Virus record (IMG/VR): IMGVR_UViG_3300020442_000007 | Coordinates: 64,001-128,000 of that record | Strand: one strand, 5' to 3' | From: a virus | Length of the DNA stretch: 64,000 bases | Shown: one piece after another, positions 1 to 31,069 of the stretch | Layout of the letters: every line of letters starts with the position of its first letter | Numbering within the stretch: the first letter of the stretch is position 1 | The notes under the pieces: model-generated | Databases searched by the model: none | The model's input: the letters and a program-made list of their open reading frames with translations, nothing else | What the model was told of the DNA's origin: nothing | Program-made: the position numbers and the translations under genes

Positions 1-420
1 GGACATCAACCTACACATAAAGTATTAGACCATATGCGAGAAAAATGGTCAGAAGAAGCATGGCTCAAACATTGGAACAAATATCAAAAATGCACACACA
101 ACTATTACCATTGTAATTTTGCTGATACTAAAAATCTACGGAAAATTTTGAAAAAATTTCATGCTCCTTACTATGGTAGTGTATTTTGGTATGATGGAGC
201 ATTGAAAAGAATGCCTGCTAATATAAACAAAACTAGTGAACAAAGCCATAAAAATGCAAAAGCATTTATGCGTTCATTAGTAGATTACAATCCAAGTATG
301 CTAGTATATGGTTCAGATCATTGTTGTGCTACATTCAATGGAATAAGTGCTGCAGATGCCCTAGCAAATATGCAAGAGGATACAAGGCAAAAATTATGGA
401 GGGAAATTAATGCGATATAG
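1..420 (+). CDS. hypothetical protein, probably 5'-truncated by the window edge
   Basis: ORF track gives 34..420, but the frame is open back to base 1 (GGA CAT CAA CCT ACA CAT AAA GTA TTA GAC CAT ATG); overlaps the next gene start. Confidence 0.6.
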   Translation, partial: GHQPTHKVLDHMREKWSEEAWLKHWNKYQKCTHNYYHCNFADTKNLRKILKKFHAPYYGSVFWYDGALKRMPANINKTSEQSHKNAKAFMRSLVDYNPSMLVYGSDHCCATFNGISAADALANMQEDTRQKLWREINAI

Positions 421-1024
421 AGGTATATCAGAAGCTGAGCATCATCGGGTCTTACATGAAATAAAAATAGATAGACAATCGTTTATAGACTTTTACAATA
501 TGTTTCCAAAAGAAACACATCTTCCTTGGAATGAATTTAAATTAAAATATAATGCGAATAATCCTTACAGACGCAATCTTACAGACAAATTTAAAATGGT
601 ATATGCTCCTGCATATGAAGGTAAAGAACTTATAGAATATCCAATTATACAAGAATTAATTAGTAAATTTAATTTCAGGAATCCACTGATAGTCACTGAT
701 ATACAAATACTAACTTATGACCCTGGCTTTAGATTTAAAACACATATTGATGCAGAAGTTAATTGGAGTATGTTTTTGCCTTTGATACCAGAAGATGGTG
801 GAGAACCTTTAGTGTATCACGAAGGCGAAAATATGAAAGATCCTGGTCCAGAAATATACCGTGTGCATTATTGTACTGAACACTTGACTCTTACAACAGG
901 AGCAGTAATACATAGAGTTCCGGAAATGGCTGGGCCAAGAGTGCTTTTACGCATCAGGAGTGGCGATGAAACCTATCAAGAGCTTATTGATAAGATTAAT
1001 AAAGGCACATTCTTTAATATATAA
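410..1024 (+). CDS. 2OG-Fe(II) oxygenase superfamily protein
   Basis: HxD (THIDAE), distal His (IHRV) and Arg (PRVLLR) in double-stranded beta-helix spacing. Confidence 0.7.
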   Translation: MRYRGISEAEHHRVLHEIKIDRQSFIDFYNMFPKETHLPWNEFKLKYNANNPYRRNLTDKFKMVYAPAYEGKELIEYPIIQELISKFNFRNPLIVTDIQILTYDPGFRFKTHIDAEVNWSMFLPLIPEDGGEPLVYHEGENMKDPGPEIYRVHYCTEHLTLTTGAVIHRVPEMAGPRVLLRIRSGDETYQELIDKINKGTFFNI

Positions 1025-1034
1025 GTATTTTGCT

Positions 1035-1042
1035 TATAAATA
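1035..1042 (+). promoter_or_regulatory. T4-type late promoter motif TATAAATA (second copy CATAAATA at 1087-1094)
   Basis: Exact match to the T4 late consensus in the intergenic region before the fibre gene. Confidence 0.55.
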
Positions 1043-1127
1043 CATTATACAAAGCAAAAACGAAGATAAGTATTATTGCAATATGGCATAAATACATATA
1101 AGAAACGATATTTCAGGAGTTCTATAA

Positions 1128-2522
1128 ATGGCTTTAAGACTTAGACGTGGTACTAATGCAGAAAGACTGTTAGTTACCCCATTAGAGGGCGAATTAGTAT
1201 ATACCACAGACACAAAAAAGATTTTCGCGGGAGATGGCACAACTATTGGCGGTACAGAAATTGCGGGCCTGAATAGTGTAGTAGCAGATACTACTCCTCA
1301 ACTAGGTGGAAACCTAGATTTAAATAGTCAAAATATAACAGGTATAGGTAACATCACAATAGATGGTACTATTACTGCACCACAATTTGAAGGTAACATA
1401 TTAGCAGACGATAGTACATTGGTGTTCAATAGTGCTACTCAAGCACTAGCAATTACAAACTTAACAATTTCCGGTGATGTAGATTTAACCGAAGCTACAA
1501 ATAAATTAGACGTATTTTCCAATCATGCTAGTACATCTAGCAACATAGTTTTAAATAGATCAAAAGGGACTAAAGCCAGCCCAACTGCTCTTAGTGATAA
1601 TGACAATATTTTTGGTATTAAATTTGTAGGACATGATGGGACTAGCTATACCGGTGGTGCAAGTATTATTTCTGATATTGATGGAACAGTATCAACAGGT
1701 AATGTACCAGCTGATTTATCTTTCAAAGTAACTAATTCAAGTGGTACAGAATTAACACCTATTAAATTAAATTCAAGTGGTATAATTGAAACTAACACAC
1801 AAGTAAACAATTTTGAAAGTTCATTTTTTTATAGTGTAGGAAATTCATCAAATGCTAGAAGTATAGAAAGATACAGATCAAGAGGCTCAGTCGCCGCTCC
1901 AGTAGTCAATAATGTAAACGATCTAATCTACCAAGACAAGTACTATGGTTATGATGGTGCGGCTCATAAGATGGTTGTAAGAACACAAGGTATGGTTGGT
2001 AACAGTAGTATATCATCAGGTGTAATGAGTGGTAGATATCGTGTGCGTATGACAGACGCATCAGGTACAGAAAAGACGTACTTAGATATCAGAGGTAATG
2101 ATGATAAAATACAAATTCGTAGTGATTTAGAAATTCCACAATTTAGTTTAGTAGTAGGTGGTATAAAACATTTTGAGAATAGAATTGTTGGTCTTGATTC
2201 AAACGCAGATATTGAAATCCAAGCATCTGGTACAGGTGATGTAGTAGTATCAGGTGGTTTAAGATCAGATGGTATTAAATTTGAAGGCAACACTATTAAA
2301 ACTACGGATTCCAACGCACCATTAGAGCTTTCAGCTTCAGGCACAGGCATTGTTTCAGCAACAAATTTGACTGCTTTGAATTACATGCAACTTCCGGTGT
2401 ATGCTAACAATACTGCAAGAGATTCAGCAATAAGTTCACCAAACGCAGGTATGCTTATATTCAATTCAACAGGCACTAAATTCCAAGGTTATACTGGTGC
2501 TGCTTGGGTAGACCTAAATTAA
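1128..2522 (+). CDS. tail fibre / virion fibre protein with Mtd_N (hyaluronidase-N)-like N-terminus
   Basis: N-term LRLRRGT..GELVYTTDTKKIFAGDG; PQLGGNLDLN motif; internal repeats (RSKG..PT/RSRG..PV; two DSNA.IE..ASGTG); C-term GMLIFNST..FQGY..W; SD AGGAG. Confidence 0.8.
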   Translation: MALRLRRGTNAERLLVTPLEGELVYTTDTKKIFAGDGTTIGGTEIAGLNSVVADTTPQLGGNLDLNSQNITGIGNITIDGTITAPQFEGNILADDSTLVFNSATQALAITNLTISGDVDLTEATNKLDVFSNHASTSSNIVLNRSKGTKASPTALSDNDNIFGIKFVGHDGTSYTGGASIISDIDGTVSTGNVPADLSFKVTNSSGTELTPIKLNSSGIIETNTQVNNFESSFFYSVGNSSNARSIERYRSRGSVAAPVVNNVNDLIYQDKYYGYDGAAHKMVVRTQGMVGNSSISSGVMSGRYRVRMTDASGTEKTYLDIRGNDDKIQIRSDLEIPQFSLVVGGIKHFENRIVGLDSNADIEIQASGTGDVVVSGGLRSDGIKFEGNTIKTTDSNAPLELSASGTGIVSATNLTALNYMQLPVYANNTARDSAISSPNAGMLIFNSTGTKFQGYTGAAWVDLN

Positions 2523-2525: not shown

Positions 2526-2554
2526 TTGACAATATAAGTAATTCATAGTATAAT
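2526..2554 (+). promoter_or_regulatory. consensus sigma70 promoter, probably leaderless
   Basis: TTGACA (2526-2531), 17 bp spacer, TATAAT (2549-2554); ATG at 2561 with no SD. Confidence 0.85.
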
Positions 2555-2560: not shown

Positions 2561-3208
2561 ATGAAAACTAATCCCATTATAGTAGTAAACGCCCTTATGG
2601 GTTCTAAAGGACATCAGATTGCAAGACTGATAGCTAGTTGTTCTAATGTGCGATGGTATGATCATCATTGGAATGGTGCCAATCCTTGGGAACCTTGTAG
2701 TCATATCTTAAATCATGAATATAGCAAATATCATTTTGATAGAAGATTTAGTGATAACTCAACTATACCTCCTGTACTAGATTTTGCAGAACGTAGCAAT
2801 CATGAAGCACAAAAAATTCCATATGATATATTAGGCAAAGATGAAAAATTGATTTATGTTACACATGGAGATTTGGGCGAATCACGTGATTTCTTTAATG
2901 GCAAACATTTGGTAGTTTTTGATAAAGATATAAAAAGATTTTTTGAAACATCTTGGAAATACAAAGTGGGAAAAACAAGAACTCTTATAAGTGAACTATA
3001 TACTGTAGCAGAAGCAAAAGCTATGCTAAAAGGCGTCTTAGACAGCTATACAACGCATCTAAGCGGTGATGACTTTGCTATACATAGTGTAGAGGACCTT
3101 CTTAATATAGACATGTTTAAAATGCTTTGTAGCAAGTTTAATTTGAATTTTGACGAGAACGCATATAATAAAGTATGTAAATTTATAGATGAAAATAGAA
3201 ATAATTAA
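2561..3208 (+). CDS. sulfotransferase-fold (P-loop-like) hypothetical protein
   Basis: N-terminal strand followed by MGSKGHQIARL loop-helix; YVTH motif. Confidence 0.45.
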   Translation: MKTNPIIVVNALMGSKGHQIARLIASCSNVRWYDHHWNGANPWEPCSHILNHEYSKYHFDRRFSDNSTIPPVLDFAERSNHEAQKIPYDILGKDEKLIYVTHGDLGESRDFFNGKHLVVFDKDIKRFFETSWKYKVGKTRTLISELYTVAEAKAMLKGVLDSYTTHLSGDDFAIHSVEDLLNIDMFKMLCSKFNLNFDENAYNKVCKFIDENRNN

Positions 3209-3740
3209 TGATAACCTAAAACCAAAATTGAGATCCTTTTGCCAAAAAGCAGAAGCACTAGGGTATAGTAATAATGCTAGTCTTGATGCAATGAAATTTG
3301 ATTGGTGCCAAGAAATTGGTAAATGGCTATGTGCAATAGAAAATGATGAAATAATTGCAGTAGCAGGATGCCATCCCCTTCCAGAAGTTTCAAAAAATGC
3401 TTGGAGAATAATGTTCAGAGGTTGCGAGCTACCCAAAAAAGATAATTTTAAAGGATTAGGCAAAGGAGATTGGAATAGTATTACACAACGTGAAATGATT
3501 CCATATTTCATTAATTACTGTCCTACAAAGGAAATTTACATAACTACTAATATAGACAACGAACATTCTAATGGCAAGGCTAGCCGTAACCATAGATTAA
3601 TGGGGTTACTAGCCAAACAAGGAATACTTGATTGGCACTCTAATATTACATTATACTATACTGAACAAACTGTTTGGAAACTTAATATAGAGGAATATAC
3701 AAGACGCAGGAATTTGTTAGGAGGAAAATATGTGGGTTAA
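3189..3740 (+). CDS. GNAT-like acyltransferase
   Basis: WLCAIENDEIIAVAG..WRIMFR strand pattern and size typical of GNAT. Confidence 0.5.
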   Translation: MKIEIINDNLKPKLRSFCQKAEALGYSNNASLDAMKFDWCQEIGKWLCAIENDEIIAVAGCHPLPEVSKNAWRIMFRGCELPKKDNFKGLGKGDWNSITQREMIPYFINYCPTKEIYITTNIDNEHSNGKASRNHRLMGLLAKQGILDWHSNITLYYTEQTVWKLNIEEYTRRRNLLGGKYVG

Positions 3741-3987
3741 TTGGAAACATTTAAATGAAGCGAAAACAAAAGCAGGAAGACCAGATGCTGGTTATTTTTG
3801 GCACTTTAAACTTGCAATTAACGAATTCTTTTTCTTGCTTTTTGTATGCATAGGTAGTTTGATACATGCTTTCTTTCCGTGGGTGCTTGATTTTAAATTG
3901 TTAGAATGGCGCATAAACAGGTTAAAAGAATTAAAGAAAAAATTACCAGATGATCCACAACTTAAAAAGGTGAAGTTTTATGACTAA
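3730..3987 (+). CDS. DUF6356-like small protein
   Basis: HL..(G)Y..HF..A....IHAFFPW pattern; paralogue at 16378. Confidence 0.6.
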   Translation: MWVNWKHLNEAKTKAGRPDAGYFWHFKLAINEFFFLLFVCIGSLIHAFFPWVLDFKLLEWRINRLKELKKKLPDDPQLKKVKFYD

Positions 3988-4816
3988 TGTTTTAGATTTA
4001 ATTGCATATAAAAATGGAGAATATAAACCATTAGGACAAATAGGTCCAACAATTTTAGATTTTGGATTTATTCATTGCGATGCTACATATGATGTGATGC
4101 CAGTATATGACGGAAAAGCATTTTGTTATGATAGACATTTGCAGAGATTTAAAAATAGTGCTGAACGATACGGACTTACACTTCCAGACGTTGATCCTTT
4201 AGAAATAATAAAAGAATTAGCAAAACGCAATCCTATTGAAAATGCATTTGTTTGGTTTTTGATATGGCGTGGTTATCCACCTAGTGGAAATCCAAGAGAC
4301 TTAGAAAATTGTCCTGTAAATTTTGCAATGTATATAAAACCAAGTTATCCTATAGCAAGTACGCCTCAAGTGAAATTATTTTTAGATAGAGATACAAAAC
4401 GTGTAAATGATGATTATTATGGACAAACATATAAAAACATGGCTTGGATAGAACTTACAATGAGTCAACGTAACAGGCCAAATAATTATGATACAACTGT
4501 TTTAGTTGACACAAACGGTTTTATAACCGAAGGTCCTGGATTTAATGTTGGCATTGTTAAAGATAAAATTATAATGACATCTGATAAAAATGTACTAAAA
4601 GGTATAACAATGAGTGTCGTTGAAGACATTGCCAACGAAAACGGTTCTACTTTCAAACGCTTACCTATAAGTGCAGAATTTTTTGAATCTGCTGATGAAG
4701 TTTTTATTACAAGCTCAAGTGGAGGTGTAACGGCTACTGATAAAACAGGTGTGGTCACAGATTTTTTGATTGCACAATATGAGAAGAAAAAAACTGAGTA
4801 TGCAACAGAGTTATGA
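3980..4816 (+). CDS. PLP fold-type IV aminotransferase (class IV)
   Basis: DFGFIHCDATYDV, HLQRF, catalytic Lys in YKNMAW, TEGPGFN, LKGIT, ADEVFITSS. Confidence 0.9.
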   Translation: MTNVLDLIAYKNGEYKPLGQIGPTILDFGFIHCDATYDVMPVYDGKAFCYDRHLQRFKNSAERYGLTLPDVDPLEIIKELAKRNPIENAFVWFLIWRGYPPSGNPRDLENCPVNFAMYIKPSYPIASTPQVKLFLDRDTKRVNDDYYGQTYKNMAWIELTMSQRNRPNNYDTTVLVDTNGFITEGPGFNVGIVKDKIIMTSDKNVLKGITMSVVEDIANENGSTFKRLPISAEFFESADEVFITSSSGGVTATDKTGVVTDFLIAQYEKKKTEYATEL

Positions 4817-5550
4817 CAGACTTCAAACAAATATTAAAAGAAGGTTGCACTATATCAAGTAGTGGAACCACTGGCACGCCTAAACAAATTTTTAGATCTC
4901 CAAAAAATTTAGAAGCATGTAATGCTGTTGCTATCAAGGATCAGCATATCACATCAAAGAGCAAAATATTTACTTGCACAAGAATGACTCATGCTGGAGG
5001 GTTATTACTGCAAAGTTTACCTGCATATACATTAGGATGTGATATTCACATTACAAAATTTAATCCTTTTAGTTTTATTAAAGATTTTGAAAAATACACA
5101 CACACCTTTTTACCTCCTGCTATGTGTGAAGCCATAATAAAAACTAAAGGATTTTCAAACGCTAATTTTAACGGAAAAATAATAGCAATGGGCAGTGATA
5201 TAATACCTTGGGATCATATTCGTAAATTTGTAAGCAAAGGCGCAACAGTTATTGCTAATTGGGGTATGAGTGAAATAGGTCCATGTGCAATAAACACAAC
5301 ATTTGAGACACTAAAGTATGTTGACAGGCATGCAGAATGGGCACCTAATGGATTACCTATTATGGGTGAAAATTTAAATTGTTGCTATCAAATTGATTAT
5401 AAAACAGACGAACTACTTGTTAAAGGAGATATCTGTATTCATGATGATTGGTTTGCAACAGGCGATAAAGTGCATTTACATTATAAAATGCCGCAACTAG
5501 GTTATTTTCCTATATTATATTATAAAGCAAGATTAGCACACGCCAGTTGA
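4813..5550 (+). CDS. truncated AMP-binding (ANL superfamily) adenylate-forming enzyme
   Basis: SSGTTGTPK (A3), WGMSE (A5), WFATGD (A7); only 245 aa. Confidence 0.8.
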   Translation: MTDFKQILKEGCTISSSGTTGTPKQIFRSPKNLEACNAVAIKDQHITSKSKIFTCTRMTHAGGLLLQSLPAYTLGCDIHITKFNPFSFIKDFEKYTHTFLPPAMCEAIIKTKGFSNANFNGKIIAMGSDIIPWDHIRKFVSKGATVIANWGMSEIGPCAINTTFETLKYVDRHAEWAPNGLPIMGENLNCCYQIDYKTDELLVKGDICIHDDWFATGDKVHLHYKMPQLGYFPILYYKARLAHAS

Positions 5551-8015: not shown

Positions 8016-8023
8016 ATTTGCTC

Positions 8024-12987: not shown

Positions 12988-13172
12988 GAAGTCTCGTAAA
13001 GACAGTATCATGGAGATTAACTGGTACACTTTGCACATTTTTAATTAGTTACGCAATATTACGTGACATTAGTATAAGCGGTTCTATTGCAATTATACAA
13101 CTTACTGCTAACACATTTATATTTTATATACACGAACGTATATGGAATATAATAAAATGGGGTAAACTTTGA
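12972..13172 (+). CDS. DUF2061 small membrane protein
   Basis: RSLVKTVSWR ... YIHERIW..IKWG signature. Confidence 0.85.
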   Translation: MDTKVRSLVKTVSWRLTGTLCTFLISYAILRDISISGSIAIIQLTANTFIFYIHERIWNIIKWGKL

Positions 13173-16385: not shown

Positions 16386-16623
16386 AAAAATTAAAGAACA
16401 TTTAGAAGAAACAGAATGGGGATATTGGAAACACTTAACGCATAGTGTTCACCAAAGTAATAAACTGATAGCCTGTGCAATTAAATCTTACATACATGGA
16501 ATTTTTCCATGTTGGTATAAAGCTGATGGGCCAATAACTATTTTTAAAATGTATCATCAAATAAAACGTATTCATCATGTAGCAAAATTAGAACGTGAAA
16601 TGAAAGACAAGGGTGAAATATAA
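16378..16623 (+). CDS. DUF6356-like small protein
   Basis: EHLEETEWGYWKHL..YIHGIFP; start moved to ATG 16378 after GGAGG SD. Confidence 0.65.
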   Translation: MYKKIKEHLEETEWGYWKHLTHSVHQSNKLIACAIKSYIHGIFPCWYKADGPITIFKMYHQIKRIHHVAKLEREMKDKGEI

Positions 16624-19631: not shown

Positions 19632-19636
19632 TCTTA

Positions 19637-19665
19637 ATTATATACTTTCTTATGCAAAATGTCAA
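19637..19665 (-). promoter_or_regulatory. consensus sigma70 promoter, probably leaderless
   Basis: Minus strand TTGACA (19665-19660), 17 bp, TATAAT (19642-19637); ATG at 19631. Confidence 0.85.
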
Positions 19666-24340: not shown

Positions 24341-25688
24341 TATATCCTACTAGCTTACCGCTATCATGACCCCTTATAGGTACTAAACTTATTGCTCCTA
24401 TCTGCCTACCATTTGCTCCTAAATCATTTATTCCTAATTTAATAATTTTATCATAAAAACTTTGAGCTCTATCTAACATGCCAGGCGGTGTCATTAATTT
24501 AATTTCTAACCAATGATCATCTGGTACTTTTTTATGCCTTTGAATAATAATTTCACAGTTTTTAATAAACCTTTCTTCATTACCAGGATAAAGATCCATA
24601 CTTCCGAAATGAGCACTCATATTTACACTATTAATATATTTACTTGCTTCAGTCCAGTATTTTGTGCTACGACTACCATTTGTAGTAACAAGGACCCATT
24701 GATTCCTACTTTTTAAATGTTTCAAGATATCTAAAAATTTAGGATTCATTGTAGGCTCACCGCCTCCAAAATTCCATCTTATAGTTTCTCCTTTACTCCA
24801 AGAGTCTATGGCTTTATCTATTGTTTCTATAATTTTTTCATAGTCATGATGTGCTTCTTTATTATTATGCACACTTGGCCAGCAATAATCACAATCATAA
24901 TTACATCTTCTTGTTATATCCCACAAGATTTGATGATTAATTGGAAAATTCATTTCTATACCGACTGGAGTAGTATCAAATGCATTTTGTGGATTTTTTA
25001 CTGGGTCTTGAAAATGGCCTTTATCTTGACCATCATAACCATATCTAGTTACATTTAAATTTTCTAAAGCAGGCTCGTCTTTTGCTTTACTTAAAATTAC
25101 ATCTGCTCCGCAACCACAGCTATCAAAAGGACAACTAGTCCATTGTTTAGGAGTTTCCCAACCTGTAAAAATACTTCCCTGTAATCCCCAAATATCATCA
25201 TTCTTTTCTGCTTTCCATTGCCAAGTAGCAGGATCCTTCATAAATTGTTTATACGGATCATCAAAGAATTGTTTTTCTAATTTTTTAATAAAGGACATTA
25301 GCGTAATATGTTGCTCACAAGTTTCCCAATTTTTTTTTGGCATAGGCCAACCATCTCTTGTATTTTCTTCAATCCATTCTTTGTGCGGATATGCTCCTAT
25401 AAATGATTCTCTATATTCTTTCCATAATCTATCAACTAAATCAGGATCATGATTTGTAAAATTTTTAACTTTTTGTTCATGAACTTTACCGTACTGAGAT
25501 GCACTTGCACAATTTGCAATCCACACATTACCATCATAGTCTATGTATAAACTTCTTACACCTGCACTACATTTCCAATCTTTCCAATGGTTAAGATTAT
25601 TAGCAATAACTTCATCAACACTATACAGACTATACTGATTATTTTTATTGTATATTCTTAATTGCCTATTGCCTGTAGGTTGGTCCAT
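24303..25688 (-). CDS. radical SAM protein, circularly permuted (SPASM-like domain first)
   Basis: CSAG..IDYDG..C and CPFDSCGCGAD precede CNYDCDYC, GGGEP, TTNGSR. Confidence 0.85.
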   Translation of the reverse strand: MDQPTGNRQLRIYNKNNQYSLYSVDEVIANNLNHWKDWKCSAGVRSLYIDYDGNVWIANCASASQYGKVHEQKVKNFTNHDPDLVDRLWKEYRESFIGAYPHKEWIEENTRDGWPMPKKNWETCEQHITLMSFIKKLEKQFFDDPYKQFMKDPATWQWKAEKNDDIWGLQGSIFTGWETPKQWTSCPFDSCGCGADVILSKAKDEPALENLNVTRYGYDGQDKGHFQDPVKNPQNAFDTTPVGIEMNFPINHQILWDITRRCNYDCDYCWPSVHNNKEAHHDYEKIIETIDKAIDSWSKGETIRWNFGGGEPTMNPKFLDILKHLKSRNQWVLVTTNGSRSTKYWTEASKYINSVNMSAHFGSMDLYPGNEERFIKNCEIIIQRHKKVPDDHWLEIKLMTPPGMLDRAQSFYDKIIKLGINDLGANGRQIGAISLVPIRGHDSGKLVGYSDNEIRFFQQQG

Positions 25689-26572
25689 TAGATATACCCG
25701 CCTCGCATAGAGTTATATACAACATTGTTTCTGTTAATGTAATTTGCTAATTCTGGTTTTGCAGTATCTATAGCAAAATCTCTATACAATATTCTCAACT
25801 GTTTAACGATGCGATCTGCTGATTTAGGTAAAGTATCTATATCTAATGTATAATAAGAGTTAAATTTTGATCGTAAATTATCTAACAAATAATCATTTTC
25901 TTTGTATTTTTTTGAAAAACTTGTTATAGAATCTTTTATAGATTTTTTGTGTTCGTATGGTGCTGAATCGTTATTAATAATTTTATGATAAAGAGACCAT
26001 ACGTCATTCAACCAAACCCATTCATATTCCAAACCTATTCTATCTGAAATTTTTTGTGCAATATCATCACTACAACCTATTCTGTATGTTATAAAATTAG
26101 GATCAACAGGAGTTTTTAATTTATGAGCTGTTTTAGCATAATACAATGTAGCAAAATATTCATAGGCATAAGATGAACTAAACTTAATGTGTAAAACATT
26201 TACCTTATCTGCAATAGGCGTCAACAATTTTATTGTAGTGCGATCTACATGATCACGAACAACAAAGTTTTTTGTTAAATCTAAATCATTTGTCAAATAG
26301 TATTCTTCATTTATCCAATTACTTTTATTTTCCCTTTCATGTAGTTGACCTATGAAATGTAATCTGGGAATAATACATTGACATTCATATCTATTGCTAG
26401 GAATATTTAAATTATGGTTCCATTGTATACTATAAGAAGGTACATTATTGAAAGATGCAGTATGATTAGCAACAAGTTGGGTAAGATATTCACCGCATGC
26501 TCCTGATGGATACATAACCACAGTAATTTTTTTTTCGTCTAAAAGTTTGTTTACTAGATCACCTTTATCCAT
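25688..26572 (-). CDS. sulfotransferase-fold hypothetical protein
   Basis: VMYPSGACGEYL loop, NRY, VRDH; resembles the N-terminal domain of 22082..24340. Confidence 0.5.
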   Translation of the reverse strand: MDKGDLVNKLLDEKKITVVMYPSGACGEYLTQLVANHTASFNNVPSYSIQWNHNLNIPSNRYECQCIIPRLHFIGQLHERENKSNWINEEYYLTNDLDLTKNFVVRDHVDRTTIKLLTPIADKVNVLHIKFSSSYAYEYFATLYYAKTAHKLKTPVDPNFITYRIGCSDDIAQKISDRIGLEYEWVWLNDVWSLYHKIINNDSAPYEHKKSIKDSITSFSKKYKENDYLLDNLRSKFNSYYTLDIDTLPKSADRIVKQLRILYRDFAIDTAKPELANYINRNNVVYNSMRGGYI

Positions 26573-27546
26573 TACTTTTCCTTTTTACTCATAATATCAA
26601 AATTACAATGGCAGTAGCTTTTATTACAAATGACTGGTTTTGTTGGCCAAGCAATACTTTCTGGCTCTTTCATATTACCCAATGAGCCTCCAACTCTACA
26701 CCAACCTATCATTACAGTACCGTCAAAATCTACTACGATTTGTTCAACACCGCTATAACATTTCCATCCTTCCCAGTTATTTGTATTATCAGCAATAAAT
26801 CTATGTGCGGCACGATTTTTTGTTTCACCCGTTTTAGAATTAATCATGTCCATACTACCTCTATACAGTTTGAAGTCGTTGTCTCCTGTATACTTAATAT
26901 GTTTGCCAAAATCTTCCCATTGTCTATCTATAATATCTAGCTGTTCTTGTGTATAAGGAAACCTTTCACTTCCAAAATCAATCACTAGTGGTTGTAGAGC
27001 AAGGCTGAAATTTGTTGCTTCTTTTACTAATTTTTTTGTTAATTCTACGCCGTTGTTAAATCTATCAATGTCAGTGTGCATCATTATATTTACATGTGTT
27101 CTACACACCTTGGTCATAATTTTAACAACTTCTAAAAAATGATCAGCTTCTGCACTTTCAGGATGAAAACTTAAACATACATGATCAAAGTTATTTTTAT
27201 TTTTCTCCCACCATCTTATTGTACGACTAGCGTTACTTATAAAGCCTATATCGTGACCTTTAGACTTAATGTATTGGGCACACTTTATAAAGTCTTTCCA
27301 TAGTGTAACCTCTCCACCTGTAAATTCAAAATAAACTTTTCTTGGTGCATAATGTTTTTCACATGCATCAATAAATTTTTTTATAATTTCAAAATCATTC
27401 CATCCATATGAACCATTATTAAGTACAGGAGGGCAGTAACTACAAGAGTAGTTGCAGGTATTACCTAGATTCCAATTGACAACAACCCAATCTTTAGCTT
27501 CCTTGTGATGATGGTCTAAGACATCATACACCATATCAGTTTGCAT
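26572..27546 (-). CDS. radical SAM/SPASM-like protein
   Basis: CNYSCSYC, TGGE, SNASR; C-term CYSG..DFDG..WC..CNKSYCHCNFD. Confidence 0.9.
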   Translation of the reverse strand: MQTDMVYDVLDHHHKEAKDWVVVNWNLGNTCNYSCSYCPPVLNNGSYGWNDFEIIKKFIDACEKHYAPRKVYFEFTGGEVTLWKDFIKCAQYIKSKGHDIGFISNASRTIRWWEKNKNNFDHVCLSFHPESAEADHFLEVVKIMTKVCRTHVNIMMHTDIDRFNNGVELTKKLVKEATNFSLALQPLVIDFGSERFPYTQEQLDIIDRQWEDFGKHIKYTGDNDFKLYRGSMDMINSKTGETKNRAAHRFIADNTNNWEGWKCYSGVEQIVVDFDGTVMIGWCRVGGSLGNMKEPESIAWPTKPVICNKSYCHCNFDIMSKKEK

Positions 27547-27547
27547 A

Positions 27548-28477
27548 TTATTTTACCCCCGATCCGCTTAATCCTTTGTGTCGATTAACACGATCAGGCT
27601 GTTGATATATTGATTTAAAAAATTTACTTGCACCTGGTGTAAAAGGCTCGCTATCAATTGGCAACTGTAATTCATTTATTAATTTAATTCCGTAATCCTT
27701 AGAAGAATTAGTCACATCTTCAACACTAGAAAATTCACTTTTCCATAAATCATTAAGATATTCAAAGTCACGAACATTTACATAATCCCAGTCTGTACAC
27801 ATTGTTTTATACACAGCTGCTCTTGTACCAAGCATTGCCCAATCACCATTTTTTACATCTGCTCCAACCATTGCCCAAATATACAACCAATGTAAACATC
27901 TCCAATGCAAATTTAAAAATTCATCTTTGTTTGGTTTGATACCCTGATTAAGTGATAATTTTACACCTTCTCTAAAACCAGCTCTCCATGCTTGTTGAGG
28001 TGTAGCATTATTATATACATCAGAGAAGCAACTATTCATTTGTACATATTTGAGGTCCCAACAAAAATCTACTTGTGCATGTTCATTATCTGGATCTGCG
28101 TTTTCGTGTGTACGCATATTTAACACGTATTCTTTTGGCCAGCATTTTAAACCGCCATTACCATAAACAAGTCCGTTAACTTCATTTTTTCCTGCCCAAC
28201 TTATAACACAATTTTCTAATTCTACGTCATCTTCAAAAGATATTTCTTCTTTTAAAAAATTATTTTTTATTTTATTATCACCGTCTACTGTGATAAATCT
28301 ATCCGTTTCACTTAACTTTGCACATTCTTTATGTGCAGCGTCTGAACCTTTAACTCCATGAACACGTTTTGCCCAAGGAACCTTTGTTAATAAGTCAGCA
28401 TAATTTTCTTCTGCATTGGGTTCATCATAACTTAAATATACTACATCATAATCAAGTACTTTAAATTTATTAGGCAT
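27548..28477 (-). CDS. GT-A (GT2-like) glycosyltransferase
   Basis: YLSYDEP, TVDGD, YGNGGLK, AWRAGFREGVKL. Confidence 0.7.
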   Translation of the reverse strand: MPNKFKVLDYDVVYLSYDEPNAEENYADLLTKVPWAKRVHGVKGSDAAHKECAKLSETDRFITVDGDNKIKNNFLKEEISFEDDVELENCVISWAGKNEVNGLVYGNGGLKCWPKEYVLNMRTHENADPDNEHAQVDFCWDLKYVQMNSCFSDVYNNATPQQAWRAGFREGVKLSLNQGIKPNKDEFLNLHWRCLHWLYIWAMVGADVKNGDWAMLGTRAAVYKTMCTDWDYVNVRDFEYLNDLWKSEFSSVEDVTNSSKDYGIKLINELQLPIDSEPFTPGASKFFKSIYQQPDRVNRHKGLSGSGVK

Positions 28478-28484
28478 CTGGCAA

Positions 28485-29048
28485 TCATTTCCTTACGATA
28501 TGATAAAAATTTTCATCATTTACAGGACAATACAAACTTATTTTATCTAATGTTACTAAATGTGCATCATCTGTTTCTATATCGAATAATTTTTTGTTAG
28601 TAAATTTTTTCATATCAATAGTAAGTTGTCCTAGTAAAATATTAGGGTTATTTTCTTCTGTAACATATACTTTTTTAAACTGACTTAAATATTTATTGTT
28701 GATAATTCTTGACTCAACTAGTCCTGAAATATGTGCTTTACCTTGCCATTTTTCTTTCTTTTTGTCTTGGAAGATATAAAAAGATAAAGGATCATAGCCG
28801 GTAATCTTATCTAGCCGTTTTATTTCATGAATACTTTTATCTACATCAAAATTTTCTGTTTCATCTTTTCTTAAAAATTTTGGAGGAGCTTCAGGACTTA
28901 GTAAAACATAATAATCAACAAGGTTACACTTACCTGATACAAAATCTACATATAAGTCTTTATCGATAACTAAGTGTGGATCATCACTTTTGTTTTCATT
29001 TGTTACTGATAATAAATCTCCTGATTCACTGTAATACACATAAAACAT
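28485..29048 (-). CDS. hypothetical protein
   Basis: 187-aa ORF coupled to neighbours in the operon. Confidence 0.65.
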   Translation of the reverse strand: MFYVYYSESGDLLSVTNENKSDDPHLVIDKDLYVDFVSGKCNLVDYYVLLSPEAPPKFLRKDETENFDVDKSIHEIKRLDKITGYDPLSFYIFQDKKKEKWQGKAHISGLVESRIINNKYLSQFKKVYVTEENNPNILLGQLTIDMKKFTNKKLFDIETDDAHLVTLDKISLYCPVNDENFYHIVRK

Positions 29049-29881
29049 TAAACTGACTCCAATCTACTGATTAACCTATCAGTGAGAAATTCTGGTTCAA
29101 CATAATGTAAAATATTTCGTTGTAAAAAATTTCCAATCATCATAGTTTTATCTTTTGTAAAATAACCACCTAATACTGTGGTCCATTTACTAGGTACTTC
29201 ATGCCAATTTTGACAATGAGGTTTCATGTGAGTAAATGTAATAAAAGAGTTTGGATCTGTTATGTCTAAAGTATTATCTAATATCTTACTAGCAATACTA
29301 CAACTTAAATCCATACTACACCATTTTTGATAATAGTTCCCTGCGAATCTTCCATAAAATAATTCCCAGTTGATCATAATTATTTCTAAAAGTTTAAAAA
29401 ACTCATGAGCTTCGTCGCTTTTCTTAAAATAATAAAATGCAGAATATAAATTAGGCAAATTATTTTCGTCCCATGTTTTTCTGTAATACCTAGTAGTTAC
29501 ATTTTCATTACGATAATTCTTTACATTACTTACAAAAAATAAATTTCTTTTTTTAAGTTCGGACCACCAATGAGTAATATCATGTAATATTAACATATCA
29601 ACATCCATTACAATAGTATGTTCATAAGGAGAAGCATGGTATACTTTCCATCTATTTTCAATCTTCCAATTAGTATCCTTTGCTTGATCTGTCCAAGGAA
29701 TATCTATAATCTTATCAAACACAGATTTGTACTTTTCAGGTACTTTATCATTTGTAATTAATGATATATTTTGATCTTTATTAAATTTATGTATGCTAGT
29801 AGCTAAAGCATATGCCTGCTTAATATAATCAACTTCAGCATTATTCTGTGCTAGTAAACAAAATCCGTCACTCATTTTCAA
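29048..29881 (-). CDS. GT-A (GT8-like) glycosyltransferase
   Basis: YIKQAYALATSI, SPYEHTIVMDVD (DxD), FTHMK. Confidence 0.7.
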   Translation of the reverse strand: MKMSDGFCLLAQNNAEVDYIKQAYALATSIHKFNKDQNISLITNDKVPEKYKSVFDKIIDIPWTDQAKDTNWKIENRWKVYHASPYEHTIVMDVDMLILHDITHWWSELKKRNLFFVSNVKNYRNENVTTRYYRKTWDENNLPNLYSAFYYFKKSDEAHEFFKLLEIIMINWELFYGRFAGNYYQKWCSMDLSCSIASKILDNTLDITDPNSFITFTHMKPHCQNWHEVPSKWTTVLGGYFTKDKTMMIGNFLQRNILHYVEPEFLTDRLISRLESV

Positions 29882-30725
29882 ACTCTTTATCTATTGCTCT
29901 ACCTAAACTAAATTTATTCATAACATGTACATTTGCATCTTCAACTGTAGCACCTACAAAACTTCCTCCACTTGTGTAATCACAAATAAATGTCATTTTA
30001 TTTCCATCTAGATTGTGTAACATATCTCCATCTGAAGCCATATACATATTTCCTGGCATAGTACGTGGCCAAGGACCTAGTTGAAATCCTTGCAATATAT
30101 GAATTGCAATGCTAAAAGCAAAATCATTTCTATAATTGTTATTAGGTATTTGATATATTAATCTATAATAGTTCCAATTGTCTTTTATGTGCTGTATTAA
30201 ATTAAAATACATTTGCATAAAGTCAGATTTCTTAAAATAAAATCCAGTAGCCCACCACATGTCTATTGAACGATCACTTATCCTATCAAATTTTTGTAAT
30301 CTTCTTAAAGTTTTTGCAACATCTGTTGGATGCCTATAAATCAAAAAATCTTGATCCATATTAAAACAATTTAATAATTGATTATTACAAATAATAAAAT
30401 CAACATCTAACACAATAGTTTCATCAAACGGAGTAAGATTGTAACAATCTGGTCTTGAATGATTTTTCCAAGCTAATTTTTTTGTACTATATACTCCGTC
30501 TAAAAAAATTCTTTTTTGTTCTGTATGGGTTATTGGTATTGGTAGAACTTGATCAATATACTTTTGATAGAAAGTGAAAGCTCTTTCGAGATATTCAGGA
30601 TTGTCTGTAACTAATGCTACAGGCAACTTCAAATGTTCTTTTATTTTCTTTGCACAAAAAACTGCTTGTTTTATATAATCTACTTCTAAATTGTTAAGTG
30701 CAAAGAGTAACACACCTTGCGTCAT
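29868..30725 (-). CDS. GT-A (GT8-like) glycosyltransferase, paralogue of 29048..29881
   Basis: YIKQA, TPFDETIVLDVD, RNDFAFSIA, HVMNK. Confidence 0.7.
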   Translation of the reverse strand: MTQGVLLFALNNLEVDYIKQAVFCAKKIKEHLKLPVALVTDNPEYLERAFTFYQKYIDQVLPIPITHTEQKRIFLDGVYSTKKLAWKNHSRPDCYNLTPFDETIVLDVDFIICNNQLLNCFNMDQDFLIYRHPTDVAKTLRRLQKFDRISDRSIDMWWATGFYFKKSDFMQMYFNLIQHIKDNWNYYRLIYQIPNNNYRNDFAFSIAIHILQGFQLGPWPRTMPGNMYMASDGDMLHNLDGNKMTFICDYTSGGSFVGATVEDANVHVMNKFSLGRAIDKEFENE

Positions 30726-31069
30726 AAATTTAGAATGCCTTCAATTGTTCTAGTCTTTTTAAGCTCATTAAATTTTTGTAGATATGCATTTGCATTTGTA
30801 GAATAGATATTCAAAATTTCGTCTAAGAAATCTTGTAAATTTTCTATTTCTATAGGTGAATTATTATCATCTAATAAAATTGAACTGGATTGATTATTTT
30901 GTATTAAAGTATTACAAAAATTAATTAATTCTCTGTTTACATTAAATTTCCCACCATTTACATAATGTACACAATTTTCCAAAAATTTTTCATGTATAAG
31001 ATTACGCTGGTTATTTAACGTAATCATGTGATTAGAAAAATCTAGTGCTTTTTCTAGCCTATCGTCCAT
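30722..31069 (-). CDS. hypothetical protein (first gene of the GT/radical SAM operon)
   Basis: 115-aa ORF with SD AGGAG behind a consensus promoter. Confidence 0.7.
   Translation of the reverse strand: MDDRLEKALDFSNHMITLNNQRNLIHEKFLENCVHYVNGGKFNVNRELINFCNTLIQNNQSSSILLDDNNSPIEIENLQDFLDEILNIYSTNANAYLQKFNELKKTRTIEGILNL

Follow-up and report, generated by a model that had tools for sequence, protein, structure and literature searches.

A composite island of soluble tailoring enzymes beside the fibre genes of an uncultured marine jumbo myovirus

What does a marine virus do with some 31 kb of modifying enzymes lying against its tail genes, and do those enzymes form one pathway? The locus lies in a window of 64,000 nucleotides, the whole stretch of DNA that we analysed, taken from a genome of ~340 kb. 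Its major capsid protein shares 66-70% identity with the counterparts in Vibrio phage 2.275.O, Serratia phage BF and Yersinia phage fHe-Yen9-04; the source is an uncultured marine jumbo myovirus, and the window lies in its hypervariable fibre-side region. The earlier note on this DNA had read the island as a single integrated route of import, activation, tailoring and transfer, with an adduct on virion proteins or on the cell surface as its proposed product.

The physical description in that note holds. The island (window 410-31069) contains 37 open reading frames of at least 80 aa plus one 66-aa DUF2061 gene, 38 genes in all; 97.9% of it is coding, and 26 of 36 gene junctions overlap or are at most 10 nt apart. 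Its modifying enzymes are soluble, with TM segments absent from every island enzyme in a TM scan. As claimed, no replication or nucleotide-metabolism genes are interspersed between 410 and 31069, a fibre gene lies inside, and fibre and baseplate genes adjoin:

1128..2522, +, fibre-like protein with an Mtd_N domain (Pfam 4.3e-9), inside the island
31137..38645, -, five fibre-type genes (31137, 32217, 33135, 34708, 36621)
36621-38645, -, Collar-domain fibre, last listed of the five
58536-58985, gp25 baseplate gene
59785-61257, gp5 hub-lysozyme gene

The left flank, before the window, has a weak radical SAM match and a 5'-3' exonuclease.

Most island families escape sequence searches of Pfam, PHROGs and the PDB, and about half of the enzyme classes named in the earlier note could be verified, the remainder resting on motifs or weak matches. 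An ACP-like domain, also named there, was not found in the island, nor was any sugar-nucleotide synthesis gene recognised in it. The left edge is followed by module C (2561-8731), in which a class IV aminotransferase and a mini-ANL enzyme stand together with a cupin and sulfotransferase-like proteins (genes are named by their first coordinate):

410..1024, +, possible Fe/2OG oxygenase (HIDAE...H; weak matches to Pfam 2OG-FeII_Oxy_3, E 0.13, and PHROG_61, 0.0025)
2561..3208, +, P-loop-like protein, no family match
3189..3740, +, GNAT-like KGLGKG motif by eye only, no Pfam or PHROG match
3730..3987, +, small single-TM protein (TM scan; Pfam DUF6356 2e-4, below cut-off)
3980..4816, +, class IV aminotransferase, D-amino-acid / branched-chain type (Pfam Aminotran_4 1.2e-34)
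4813..5550, +, ANL (adenylate-forming) enzyme reduced to a 245-aa core (Pfam AMP-binding 7.5e-16)
5533..6264, -, sulfotransferase-like P-loop protein (Sulfotransfer_3 6e-4, below cut-off), paralog of 8024
6257..7051, -, SGNH-like motifs (GGS / ND / DGFH) by eye, Pfam DUF6473 2e-3 only
7044..8015, -, cupin / probable Fe-2OG oxygenase (blastp paralogs: 12241 and 14657)
8024..8731, -, sulfotransferase-like P-loop protein, paralog of 5533

Gene 410 shares 11 nt (410-420) with an upstream 377-aa ORF. The predicted aminotransferase is borne out, its match to the NCBIfam D-amino-acid transaminase (1.6e-23) falling below cut-off. The predicted ANL ligase stands as an AMP-binding core but only as a truncated fragment: the match spans profile positions 170-380 of 384, and the protein begins at the SSGTTGTPK motif, without the N-terminal part and the C-terminal domain. 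Genes 3189 and 6257, called GNAT and SGNH in the earlier note, retain only the motifs and weak matches listed.

Module A (8755-15732) comprises a methyltransferase, a secreted binding-protein candidate, TctA, two cupins, DUF2061, a sulfotransferase fold, a kinase and a nucleotidyltransferase; four further genes separate it from module B:

8755..9495, -, probable class I SAM methyltransferase (Pfam Methyltransf_23 7e-3; homolog 1.2e-5)
9669..10724, +, secreted protein with signal peptide, TctA neighbour and putative solute-binding partner
10736..12244, +, TctA-family inner-membrane permease (Pfam TctA 7.2e-86, full length; 10 TM-like segments by TM scan)
12241..12987, +, cupin / probable Fe-2OG oxygenase, downstream of TctA in 29/33 loci (weak AtsK match, E 0.54)
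12972..13172, +, 66-aa DUF2061 membrane protein (PF09834 9.7e-20, 68.9 bits against a cut-off of 23.1), overlooked in the earlier note
13169..13810, +, sulfotransferase-fold protein (AF2 model, pLDDT 84; VIA, Foldseek and atlas neighbours)
13807..14232, +, short P-loop kinase resembling APS kinases (33.4 bits for Pfam APS_kinase, whose cut-off is 21.1)
14225..14635, +, HxGH / ISxTxxR nucleotidyltransferase, motifs invariant, nearest (weakly) to archaeal-type NMNAT
14657..15373, +, cupin / probable Fe-2OG oxygenase, 44% identical to 12241
15379..15732, +, small hydrophobic protein, present with the cassette in 10 loci
15744..16385, +, probable SAM methyltransferase (Pfam Methyltransf_11 3e-3), paralog of 8755
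16348..16623, +, DUF6356 small protein (Pfam 1.2e-10)
16623..17207, +, HxD...H motif by eye, PHROG_25655 (unknown function) 5e-4 only
17248..17976, +, protein without significant family match

Five Fe/2OG oxygenases had been proposed. Three of them, the cupins 7044, 12241 and 14657, share an HxD...H...R that is invariant in family alignment A1; gene 410 has weak matches and 16623 the motif alone. The carboxylate importer is a TctA-family protein, its carboxylate substrate a family-level guess. Protein 9669 shows no TctC/Bug similarity and belongs to no known family (Pfam and NCBIfam searched), and its homologs adjoin TctA in 31 of 33 viral and all six bacterial loci. Complex prediction lends weak support to the pairing: TctA with 9669 scored 0.49 against 0.00 for the best control, with at least 51% of contacts shared between runs and a partner pLDDT of at least 80. 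Of the 80 solved complexes 58 reached that mark, as did 2 of the 110 mismatched pairs, and scores reaching it yet no higher than 0.60 came from only 7 of the 80 solved complexes but from both mismatches.

For gene 13169 modelling confirmed the predicted sulfotransferase fold; each of the 29 best VIA rows is a sulfotransferase (Z 9.4-12.4), led by 4gox (Z 12.4, rmsd 3.4, 171 aligned). It is the one verified case among the roughly six such domains claimed in the earlier note. Genes 5533 and 8024 (42% identical by blastp) match below threshold, four members of the 5533 family matching Sulfotransfer_3, but 2561, 25688 and the N-terminal domain of 22082 gained no such match; 2561 had none in Pfam or PHROG, and its hhalign comparison with the 13169 family was not significant. 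Nor did hhalign link the sulfotransferase-like families of the island to one another. The supposed CysC-nucleotidyltransferase pair fared unevenly. The kinase 13807 is plausible: its PDB-profile matches extending past the P-loop are mostly APS kinases (2yvu, 4.6e-8), and it scores below NCBIfam cut-offs. The nucleotidyltransferase 14225 (NCBIfam 9.6e-7, below cut-off; PDB profile 7e-4) is not recognisable as an ATP sulfurylase. Because no ATP sulfurylase occurs in this record or three relatives, PAPS supply would be incomplete unless the host or 14225 gives APS.

Module B (17978-31069), the fibre-adjacent block, carries four radical SAM enzymes and two GT-A-fold transferases alongside a pair of DxD proteins and a 115-aa protein:

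17978..18619, -, candidate methyltransferase of the earlier note, NeuB 2e-3 only
18600..19631, -, GT-A-fold transferase with N-terminal repeat domain (AF2 pLDDT 92; invariant DxD)
19662..20825, -, 387-aa protein, no family match
20815..22101, -, N-terminal-twitch radical SAM enzyme (NF033640, 293 bits against a cut-off of 170; SPASM + Radical_SAM)
22082..24340, -, 752-aa fusion of a P-loop-like candidate N-domain and an N_Twi radical SAM enzyme (NF033640, 333 bits, residues 309-743)
24303..25688, -, radical SAM enzyme (CNYDCDYC) with long N-terminal extension (Pfam Radical_SAM 1.3e-15)
25688..26572, -, P-loop-like protein, candidate sulfotransferase fold, no family match
26572..27546, -, radical SAM enzyme, paralog of 24303 (Pfam 2.3e-9)
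27548..28477, -, GT-A-fold family paralog of 18600 (36% identity; member of alignment A4)
28485..29048, -, 187-aa protein kept in the block across relatives
29048..30725, -, pair of DxD paralogs (29048-29881, 29868-30725), resembling GT8 by motif only
30722..31069, -, 115-aa helical protein heading the block in all relatives

All four predicted radical SAM enzymes are recovered by Pfam or NCBIfam, 20815 and 22082 as NF033640 members. The four or five glycosyltransferases reduce to the GT-A pair 18600 and 27548, together with the motif-level DxD pair (PHROG_1903, unknown function, 6e-9; 1004 unannotated homologs). The 18600 family numbers at least 6103 unannotated marine proteins; SY.E and D172xD174 are invariant in alignment A4, and the model matches GT-A glycosyltransferases with Foldseek probability 1.0 (VIA Z 11.6, rmsd 2.7, 137 aligned, residues 114-252). 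Among the three proposed methyltransferases, 8755 and 15744 keep sub-threshold matches, 17978 only its NeuB hit.

The blocks carry their own transcription signals:

2526..2554, +, perfect sigma-70 promoter (TTGACA-N17-TATAAT) heading block 2561-5550; 11/12 positions kept in relatives L023 and L030
19637..19665, -, perfect sigma-70 consensus promoter preceding 18600, within module B; perfect in L001, L034 and L039
31095..31123, -, perfect sigma-70 consensus promoter in the gap that separates the enzyme block from the last fibre gene; 10-12 of 12 positions kept in L034-L039
1036 and 1088, ATAAATAC late-type motifs ahead of fibre-like gene 1128
32189 and 34695, ATAAATAC late-type motifs of the fibre genes 31137..38645

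In 165 kb there are 10 perfect TTGACA-N16-18-TATAAT promoters, where shuffled sequence gives 0.35 (maximum 3), and three of the 10 head enzyme blocks and are kept in relatives; further early-type promoters lie at genome 47301, 49674 and 54199. The late-type motifs fall at fibre-module genes in five cases of five, four of them in gaps directly before 1128, 31137 or 33135. Three of the enzyme blocks have conserved sigma-70 promoters of their own, and the blocks do not simply share transcripts with the tail genes.

Relatives separate the modules further. The island genes are no random scatter. Module B keeps its collinear order and its place beside the fibres in every relative examined, L034-L039 included, and its gene order is identical in an unrelated 144-kb contig. 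In three large relatives the conserved linkage to the tail module envisaged in the earlier note does not extend to the TctA cassette. The three large relatives checked (343, 323 and 307 kb) all carry modules A and B, with module B ~15-25 kb from the baseplate gene and the TctA cassette 50-130 kb from it. Because that cassette also lies ~70-130 kb from the fibre-adjacent block in these genomes, the island is not one fixed pathway. Its gene content is hypervariable among relatives: block 2561-8731 is found in nearest relatives only, and no homolog of 25688 was found in L034-L039, even among the nearest. The TctA-cupin-sulfotransferase core recurs in ~30 viral contigs. Across 33 viral loci, many of them near-duplicates whose counts overstate independence, we found the binding protein in 31, the cupin in 29, the sulfotransferase in 28, the methyltransferase (homologs of 8755 flanking TctA, as also in bacterial MAGs) in 24, an N_Twi radical SAM enzyme in 16, DUF2061 in 15, the kinase in 14 and the nucleotidyltransferase in 12. 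A reduced version, with a core of TctA, 9669-like protein, sulfotransferase-like protein and methyltransferase, occurs in six bacterial MAG contigs from several phyla. YcaO-TfuA genes and an 82-aa ORF lie near a bacterial TctA locus. The island is a composite, juxtaposing at least three cassettes of soluble tailoring enzymes, each separately mobile.

What such a composite does is a separate question. Early enzymes could remodel the host envelope, altering its glycans or proteins with sugar, sulfate or methyl groups, and thereby block superinfection by competing phages or prevent re-adsorption of released progeny. A surface-change role of this kind was put forward by Zaragoza-Solas et al. for the host recognition cluster's glycosyltransferases, an analogous and already published general pattern (PMC7029224). 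The conserved sigma-70-type early promoters at block heads, the hypervariable gene content and the presence of a secreted protein and an inner-membrane permease all agree with it. We nevertheless consider this reading unlikely: the transferases, oxygenases and radical SAM enzymes are all soluble, Pfam searches of the island recognised no GtrA/B-type, Wzx/Wzy, polyprenyl-phosphate transferase or O-acetyltransferase gene, and Pfam searches with the TM scan found no lipid-carrier, flippase or polymerase genes in it.

It is similarly improbable that the island has no common product, being independent auxiliary genes dumped together, with modules B and C doing unrelated things and module A a self-contained cassette that takes up and transforms some dissolved organic or sulfur compound. 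The distance of module A from the baseplate gene in the large relatives, its core in bacteria of several phyla, the confinement of module C to nearest relatives and the earlier listing of tctA among viral auxiliary genes whose role is unknown (PMC4164917) all point that way. Against it, modules A, B and C draw on the same families (N_Twi radical SAM, sulfotransferase-like, cupin, methyltransferase), both A and B are present in each large relative, and the distant relative L038 joins GT-like, radical SAM, sulfotransferase-like, methyltransferase, TctA and binding-protein genes in a single fibre-adjacent run.

Hypermodification of phage bases by early transferases, oxygenases, kinase and radical SAM enzymes, evading restriction, is very unlikely. 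Early-type promoters, hypervariability suited to an anti-restriction role and the left-flank radical SAM match and exonuclease would accord with it, but a Pfam search of the island recognised no base-hydroxymethylase, TET/JBP-type or DNA-binding domain, and across relatives module B follows fibre genes, not replication genes. We know of no place in DNA modification for sulfotransferases, a permease with a secreted partner or a D-amino-acid-type transaminase, all present in the island. Radical SAM enzymes of the SPASM and twitch types typically mature peptides, and these enzymes, weak NCBIfam matches to several maturases, the YcaO-TfuA genes and 82-aa ORF near the bacterial TctA locus and the conserved 115-aa first gene 30722, with no family match, would suit a small phage-encoded RiPP-like peptide, or another secreted natural product, matured by the radical SAM enzymes with the oxygenases, sulfotransferases and methyltransferases, but we consider this the least probable of all: the island has no short precursor-like gene, protease or exporter, its coding density is too high for an unannotated precursor (the DUF2061 gene excepted), and NF033640 has no assigned substrate.

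The reading that we tentatively favour is a system that hydroxylates fibre-type proteins and then sulfates, methylates or glycosylates them. In 2010, Iyer et al. described bacterial neighbourhoods in which genes for beta-hydroxylase-type 2OG enzymes, methyltransferases, sulfotransferases, PAPS synthetases and acetyltransferases sit together with genes for T4 tail-collar-family or collagen-like proteins; they proposed that the latter are hydroxylated and then sulfated (PMC2938197). A Collar-domain fibre lies near the island, at 36621-38645. The solubility of the enzymes, the fibre linkage of module B and the lack of lipid-carrier, flippase and polymerase genes also count in favour of this reading. 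Several points weigh against it, among them these: early-type promoters would predict a host-takeover or DNA-modification function rather than virion assembly, module A is unlinked to fibres in complete relatives, and the transporter has no explained role in protein decoration. Under the favoured reading of fibre tailoring, the likeliest target, and the least certain step, would be the phage's own tail-collar-type fibre or baseplate proteins. The enzymes would be produced early and last until assembly; the Fe/2OG enzymes would add hydroxyl groups, which may then be O-sulfated with PAPS supplied at least partly by the phage kinase, O-methylated or glycosylated, with additional edits by the radical SAM enzymes.

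On the evidence of gene order in its relatives, the 38-gene island at 410-31069 (genes are named here by their start coordinates) resolves into three modules, A (8755-15732), B (17978-31069), and C (2561-8731), and not into one pathway. The earlier note had read the island as a single route from import through activation and tailoring to transfer, a reading that came apart across our comparison set of 39 IMG/VR loci, one NCBI contig, three large relatives (G001, G002, and G003), and six bacterial MAG contigs. Module B is collinear and fibre adjacent in loci L034-L039 (55-92% identity), and its order recurs on an unrelated 144-kb contig as fibres, proteins of 116, 286, 279, and 205 aa, a 2OG enzyme, a 305-aa protein, a 547-aa member of the GT-A family, and four radical SAM genes. 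In all three large relatives, the GT-A gene and an array of N_Twi radical SAM genes lie ~15-25 kb from the baseplate gene. Module C occurs only in the nearest relatives, and gene 25688 is missing even there.

Module A is present in 33 viral loci, many of them near-duplicates, with a TctA permease that is 77-100% identical. The binding-protein candidate accompanies it in 31 of these loci, a cupin in 29, the sulfotransferase fold in 28, a methyltransferase in 24, an N_Twi radical SAM gene within 10 kb in 16, DUF2061 in 15, the kinase in 14, and the nucleotidyltransferase in 12. A reduced module A, consisting of TctA, a 9669-like gene, a 5533-type sulfotransferase-like gene, and an 8755-type methyltransferase, is found on MAG contigs whose assignments are Legionellales, Weeksellaceae, and "Marine bacterium B5-7"; ordinary bacterial genes surround it in the third. 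On that contig (BQJD01000039.1, 2341-5551 and 10001-14801), a YcaO-TfuA pair stands 5 kb away from the run of TctA, 9669-like, sulfotransferase-like, methyltransferase, and 2OG genes, together with an 82-aa ORF and a further 2OG oxygenase, a neighbourhood that is possibly a thioamide-peptide cluster.

Modules A and B are both present in three of the three large relatives checked, and the distant locus L038 gathers glycosyltransferase-like, radical SAM, sulfotransferase-like, methyltransferase, TctA, and binding-protein genes into one fibre-adjacent run. Module A is nevertheless found far from the baseplate gene elsewhere; the modules thus keep company genome-wide without obligate linkage. Random co-occurrence without linkage, the outcome that the earlier note had set against its own proposal, thus fails for sub-blocks such as the collinear module B and holds between modules, A lying 50-130 kb from the baseplate gene in G001-G003.

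The phage itself is represented by a record of 165,479 bp, of which the window covers bases 64001-128000, with a CheckV completeness of 47%. The best matches of its major capsid protein are jumbo phages of 349-469 kb, including Vibrio phage 2.275.O (349 kb; 70% identity) and, at 66% identity, Serratia phage BF, Yersinia phage fHe-Yen9-04, and the Erwinia SNUABM phages; its baseplate hub-lysozyme is closest to that of Pseudomonas phage PA5oct (39%). A 342,932-bp contig encodes a protein identical to that of one island gene, and the TctA cassette is also carried on a relative's 342,607-bp genome with terminal repeats. The capsid matches and these two long sequences together indicate an uncultured marine jumbo myovirus of ~340 kb that is neither a pelagimyophage nor a cyanomyophage. 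A megablast search with 50 kb of the window returned no match among GenBank phages.

The island comprises 37 ORFs of at least 80 aa plus one 66-aa DUF2061 gene, is 97.9% coding, and has 26 of 36 junctions that overlap or span 10 nt or less; no replication or nucleotide-metabolism genes are interspersed in it. To its right lie five fibre-type genes, a giant protein, gp25, and a gp5-type hub. Its left flank holds ORFs without a family, a MoxR AAA protein with DUF2201, and a 5'-3' exonuclease; gp14 is not there. A 377-aa ORF without a family (window 1-420, genome 63287-64420; 17287-18420 in locus L042) overlaps ORF 410 by 11 nt. As a homolog of this ORF (60% identity) also precedes the island in loci L023 and L030, the true left border may stand at least one gene further left. 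The principal fibre-side features are as follows.

1128-2522, inside the island: fibre-like protein with an Mtd_N domain (Pfam)
36621-38645, minus strand: Collar-domain fibre (Collar, 5.2e-17), ~5.5 kb from the island edge
39287-54847, minus strand: one ORF of 5186 aa, carrying a CBM_5_12 carbohydrate-binding module at about residues 2349-2376

The 5186-aa ORF occupies the place that VrlC has in pelagimyophages. No collagen-like repeats were found in the fibres. Three consecutive fibre genes, 33135, 34708, and 36621 (33135-38645, minus strand), are 32-36% identical over their first 250-330 residues and then diverge, which looks like one attachment domain bearing three alternative distal domains.

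One glycosyltransferase candidate is 18600, whose model (pLDDT 92) places a GT-A domain at residues 114-252 (VIA Z 11.6, rmsd 2.7, 137 residues aligned). Foldseek returned only GT-A glycosyltransferases on top, with a probability of 1.0 to K4CP, ppGalNAc-T, TarS, and A64R; the structures of PBCV-1 A64R and Mimivirus R699 are among the fold matches, and the fold also matches the IspD and MobA nucleotidyltransferases at Z ~10. D172-x-D174, a DxD motif, is invariant in the family. This family, which includes the paralog 27548, runs to at least 6103 proteins that all lack Pfam domains. A second pair, 29048 and 29868, shows by eye only a GT8-like N-terminal motif and a DxD. Neither has a Pfam or NCBIfam match, the best 120 of 1004 homologs lack a Pfam domain, and an hhalign comparison of the pair with the GT-A family was not significant. 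In a Pfam tally of 74 homologs, no glycosyltransferase family turned up.

All four radical SAM enzymes are firm assignments. Two of them, 20815 and 22082, match NF033640 (N_Twi_rSAM) over the full model with 293.5 and 333 bits against 170, carry the CxxxCxxC cluster motifs CNFGCRMC and CNLKCRSC, and so belong by score to a family without an assigned substrate; 22082 has an extra N-terminal domain of ~300 aa ahead of this part. The other two, 24303 and 26572, are not members of NF033640. Literature searches on NF033640 and on phage systems of radical SAM enzymes, fibres, and sulfotransferases turned up no functional study, either of that family or of an island like this one. Between two of the radical SAM genes stands 25688 (25688-26572, minus strand), a P-loop-like gene inserted recently, on its own, into a conserved operon; the collinear loci L034-L039 have no homolog of it.

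Among the genes with a possible role in sulfation, 13169 is the sole one for which a sulfotransferase fold is predicted. The top 29 VIA matches of its model (pLDDT 84) are all sulfotransferases, led by the olefin-synthase sulfotransferase domain 4gox (Z 12.4, rmsd 3.4, 171 residues aligned); tyrosylprotein sulfotransferases score Z 11.2-11.6 (TPST1, 11.6), whereas P-loop kinases reach only Z 9.4 or less. Every candidate missed the Pfam cut-offs of Sulfotransfer_1, Sulfotransfer_3, and Sulfotransfer_4, the best being 5533 with 20.5 bits versus 27. Genes 5533 and 8024 match Sulfotransfer_3 at 6e-4, and four homologs also match it (best, 2.7e-4); 13169, 2561, 25688, and the N-terminal domain of 22082 have no Pfam match, even in relaxed searches. 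In a look for the PAPS-binding 5'-PSB and 3'-PB motifs and a catalytic base, P-loop-like GxxGxxK/S stretches and a conserved R-D/T could be seen, by eye only, in A2 and A3, our alignments of the sulfotransferase-like families. PDB sequence-profile searches with both families gave no significant match. Comparisons among the families by hhalign gave nothing significant either, and shared ancestry of the "six sulfotransferase domains" could thus not be demonstrated.

Gene 13807 (141 aa) exceeds the Pfam cut-off for APS_kinase (PF01583) with 33.4-33.8 bits against 21.1, over profile positions 2-92 of 152 only, and fails the NCBIfam equivalog cut-offs (TIGR00455, 28 bits against 138.7). Canonical APS kinases have the motif LDGDN.R, at the place of which 13807 reads INADAVR. 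In a PDB profile search, APS kinases made up most of the matches extending past the P-loop, and we call the gene APS-kinase-like with moderate confidence. Its neighbour 14225 (136 aa) is assigned at the same moderate level as a HxGH nucleotidyltransferase: it carries HxGH and ISxTxxR motifs and is nearest to archaeal-type NMNAT (7e-4 to 1e-6). No ATP sulfurylase domain (PF01747) turned up in this record or any of G001-G003, in a scan whose control matched in 5 of 14 genomes. The remaining gene of this group fills an apparent 181-nt gap between the cupin 12241 and 13169, and lies in the same place in G001 (299845-300000).

12972-13172, plus strand: DUF2061 membrane protein of 66 aa (PF09834, 9.7e-20)

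DUF2061 is often found with sulfate-activation genes.

The cupins 7044, 12241, and 14657 are paralogs. Their family keeps H153 and D155 in all 19 sequences compared and H209 and R219 in at least 90% of them, the pattern of an HxD...H iron triad with a 2OG-binding Arg, which makes the trio candidate Fe(II)/2OG oxygenases at motif level only. Neither the family nor its 421 homologs has a Pfam match, the best hit of a PDB profile search was AtsK at E 0.54, hhalign between the cupin-like ORFs was not significant, and of the 74 homologs in the Pfam tally, one matched Asp_Arg_Hydrox (0.0028) and none PhyH. ORF 410 matches 2OG families at E 0.13 in Pfam and 0.0025 in PHROG. A fourth cupin and a third methyltransferase of the 8755 type stand side by side ~46 kb ahead of the window (18094-19259 of the record, C1); given this further pair, the cupin-methyltransferase pair is a repeated unit. 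The assignments of 8755 and 15744 as putative methyltransferases and those of 3189 (GNAT-like) and 6257 (SGNH-like) are likewise motif-level only. Gene 17978 gave no match that would make it a methyltransferase, and 19662 gave no match at all.

Firmer are a class IV aminotransferase (Pfam, 1e-34), a DUF6356 protein with a firm family match, and an ANL core of 245 aa that begins at its SSGTTGTPK motif and lacks both terminal parts. For the 20 ORFs without a family, PHROGs gave three matches, two of them to families of no known function, and relaxed Pfam searches (E up to 5) gave nothing useful. No ACP-like domain was found in any island ORF. The catalogue of enzymes in the earlier note therefore stands in part: the four radical SAM enzymes, TctA, the aminotransferase, the ANL core, the 13169 fold, and the 18600 GT-A fold were recovered; its ACP was not, and the oxygenases, the other sulfotransferases, and the methyltransferases are motif-level calls or below.

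The transporter is the least explained part of the island. TctA is unambiguous (PF01970, 7e-86, 288.9 bits, positions 2-422 of 423), and no TctB match was found among the island ORFs. Always adjacent to TctA is 9669, which has a signal peptide and matches TctC/Bug in none of the Pfam, NCBIfam, and PDB-profile searches. A predicted TctA-9669 complex scored 0.49 against 0.00 for the best control. Of 80 solved complexes, 58 attained that mark, as did 2 of 110 mismatched pairs; with scores of 0.60 or less, only 7 of the 80 did so, together with both mismatched pairs. At least 51% of contacts are common to the runs, and the pLDDT of the partner is 80 or more. The prediction lends weak support to 9669 as a TctA partner of a family other than TctC/Bug. 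The pair may import sulfate, an acceptor, or 2-oxoglutarate for the oxygenases. In SUP05 viruses, tctA has been listed as an auxiliary gene without a known role (PMC4164917); DsrC, sought as a possible link to those viruses, is absent.

Module A could conceivably be a self-sufficient sulfation cassette, in which TctA and its new-family binding protein would import sulfate or an acceptor, 14225 would replace ATP sulfurylase, PAPS would come from the short APS kinase, and the target, once hydroxylated by a cupin, would be sulfated by the sulfotransferase-fold enzyme. The phage would then sulfate its own fibres whatever the sulfur metabolism of its host, alongside the glycosyl and radical SAM edits of module B. 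We regard this full scheme as improbable; if true, it would mean a novel kind of sulfate-activating enzyme and, for the first time, a phage virion that is sulfated.

Promoter sequences set the enzymes apart from the fibres. Exact TTGACA-N16-18-TATAAT promoters occur 10 times in the 165-kb record, compared with a mean of 0.35 (maximum, 3) in composition-preserving shuffles, and look like a set of phage early promoters. Seven are at genome positions 14018, 24983, 47301, 49674, 54199, 128850, and 129737. The other 3 of the 10 are in the island, each in a short gap ahead of the first gene of an enzyme block. Relatives whose proteins are just 39-92% identical preserve 10-12 of the 12 consensus positions at these three sites. 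All five copies of ATAAATAC in the window are at fibre-module genes, four of them in gaps just upstream of fibre-type genes.

2526-2554, plus strand: perfect promoter in the gap before 2561
31123-31095, minus strand: perfect promoter between the last fibre gene and 30722
19665-19637, minus strand: perfect promoter in the gap before 18600
1036 and 1088: ATAAATAC before 1128
32189: ATAAATAC before 31137
34695: ATAAATAC before 33135
39283: fifth copy of ATAAATAC, inside the annotated start of 38650-39306

The T4 late-promoter word itself, TATAAATA, was rejected as the late promoter: with both strands counted, it is strongly depleted in the window, with 3 copies against ~15 expected, and the fibre genes are marked by the variant instead. 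One of its three copies is directly upstream of the fibre-like gene 1128. On the pattern of T4-type phages, the enzymes here would be expressed early from host sigma-70 and the fibres late. No terminator was seen, and the enzymes may also be transcribed by read-through from the fibre genes.

What, then, might these enzymes modify? The transferases, oxygenases, and radical SAM enzymes are all without membrane segments, and the only membrane or secreted proteins are TctA, 9669, DUF2061, 3730, and 15379. No lipid-carrier, flippase, polymerase, or sugar-nucleotide genes were recognised in the island. Every one of the enzyme classes present has well-known members that modify proteins, among them tyrosylprotein sulfotransferase, Asp/Asn and Lys hydroxylases, ppGalNAc-T, SunS-type transferases, and SPASM/twitch maturases, and structural neighbours of the protein-modifying kind are among the fold matches of 13169 and 18600. 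Iyer et al. described bacterial neighbourhoods in 2010 that combine a beta-hydroxylase-type 2OG enzyme, a methyltransferase, a sulfotransferase, a PAPS synthetase, and an acetyltransferase with T4 tail-collar or collagen-like proteins, and they proposed that these proteins are hydroxylated and then sulfated (PMC2938197). The island resembles those systems in its combination of enzyme classes beside a tail-collar-family protein, having cupins, a sulfotransferase fold, an APS-kinase-like gene, methyltransferases, and a Collar fibre; it differs in being phage borne, where theirs are bacterial operons and a purely computational prediction, and in its GT-A proteins, four radical SAM enzymes, and TctA.

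Given the soluble enzymes, their protein-modifying classes, this precedent, and the nearby Collar-domain fibre, we rank first, and tentatively, a hydroxylate-then-cap system acting on fibre-type proteins, the chemistry being read from folds and families and the target from position and precedent only. The fibre-type proteins would be hydroxylated first, the hydroxyls would then be capped with sulfate, methyl, or glycosyl groups, and the radical SAM enzymes would contribute further edits. Remodelling of the host envelope, which has been proposed in print for the glycosyltransferases of host-recognition clusters, would suit the early promoters, but soluble enzymes without lipid-carrier machinery argue against it, and we consider it unlikely. 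The same low standing falls to a set of independent auxiliary cassettes with no common product: module A is independently mobile and present in bacteria, yet the recurrence of enzyme families between modules and the tight packing in L038 tell against it. Hypermodification of DNA would again fit early promoters, and is very doubtful given that sulfotransferases, a permease, and a position that tracks the fibres do not fit it. A RiPP-like product, for which precursor, protease, and exporter are all absent, is the least credible of all.

Our preferred hydroxylate-then-cap reading also invites comparison with virus-encoded glycosylation of virions. Mycobacteriophages glycosylate their capsids and tail tubes, and PBCV-1 A64R and Mimivirus fibril glycosylation are further cases. 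Common to those systems and to this island are soluble GT-A-type transferases near structural genes, which there act on virion proteins without a host lipid-carrier route. The island, where virion modification is a prediction, differs in its lack of sugar-nucleotide genes, in enzymes with sigma-70-type promoters of their own instead of a place inside a late structural operon, and in sulfation, radical SAM enzymes, and a transporter that have no counterpart there.

Zaragoza-Solas et al. (2020, PMC7029224) have already published the general pattern as the host recognition cluster (HRC): in pelagimyophages and cyanomyophages, a large hypervariable island lies in the structural region beside the giant baseplate gene and the fibres. 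Like the HRC, with its fibres, GT8-type glycosyltransferases, radical SAM cassettes, transport genes, and cassette gain and loss between close relatives, our island with its fibres, glycosyltransferase, and radical SAM cassettes varies among loci L001-L039. The HRC extends from the giant baseplate gene VrlC to the neck gene gp14; here the right side fits, with a giant gene and fibres, but gp14 is absent on the left. The HRC is borne by pelagimyophages and cyanomyophages, in contrast to the ~340-kb jumbo phage here, and its description includes neither a sulfation/TctA cassette nor early-type promoters, both of which are present here. New, then, are a different jumbo lineage, a permease-oxygenase-DUF2061-sulfotransferase-kinase-nucleotidyltransferase cassette held in common with bacteria, and conserved early-type promoters.

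Fibre-side enzyme islands are among the commonest unexplained gene sets of ocean phages, and one GT-A-like member has more than 6000 unannotated relatives. The island offers three testable handles on them: a portable permease-oxygenase-sulfotransferase-kinase cassette that bacteria have too, conserved early-type promoters that set the enzymes apart from the late fibre genes, and a match to the 2010 prediction that tail-collar proteins are hydroxylated and then sulfated. If such islands decorate virions, then phage host range, survival, and metagenomic host prediction would depend on that chemistry; if they remodel the host instead, they would constitute a major class of superinfection or metabolic-takeover genes.
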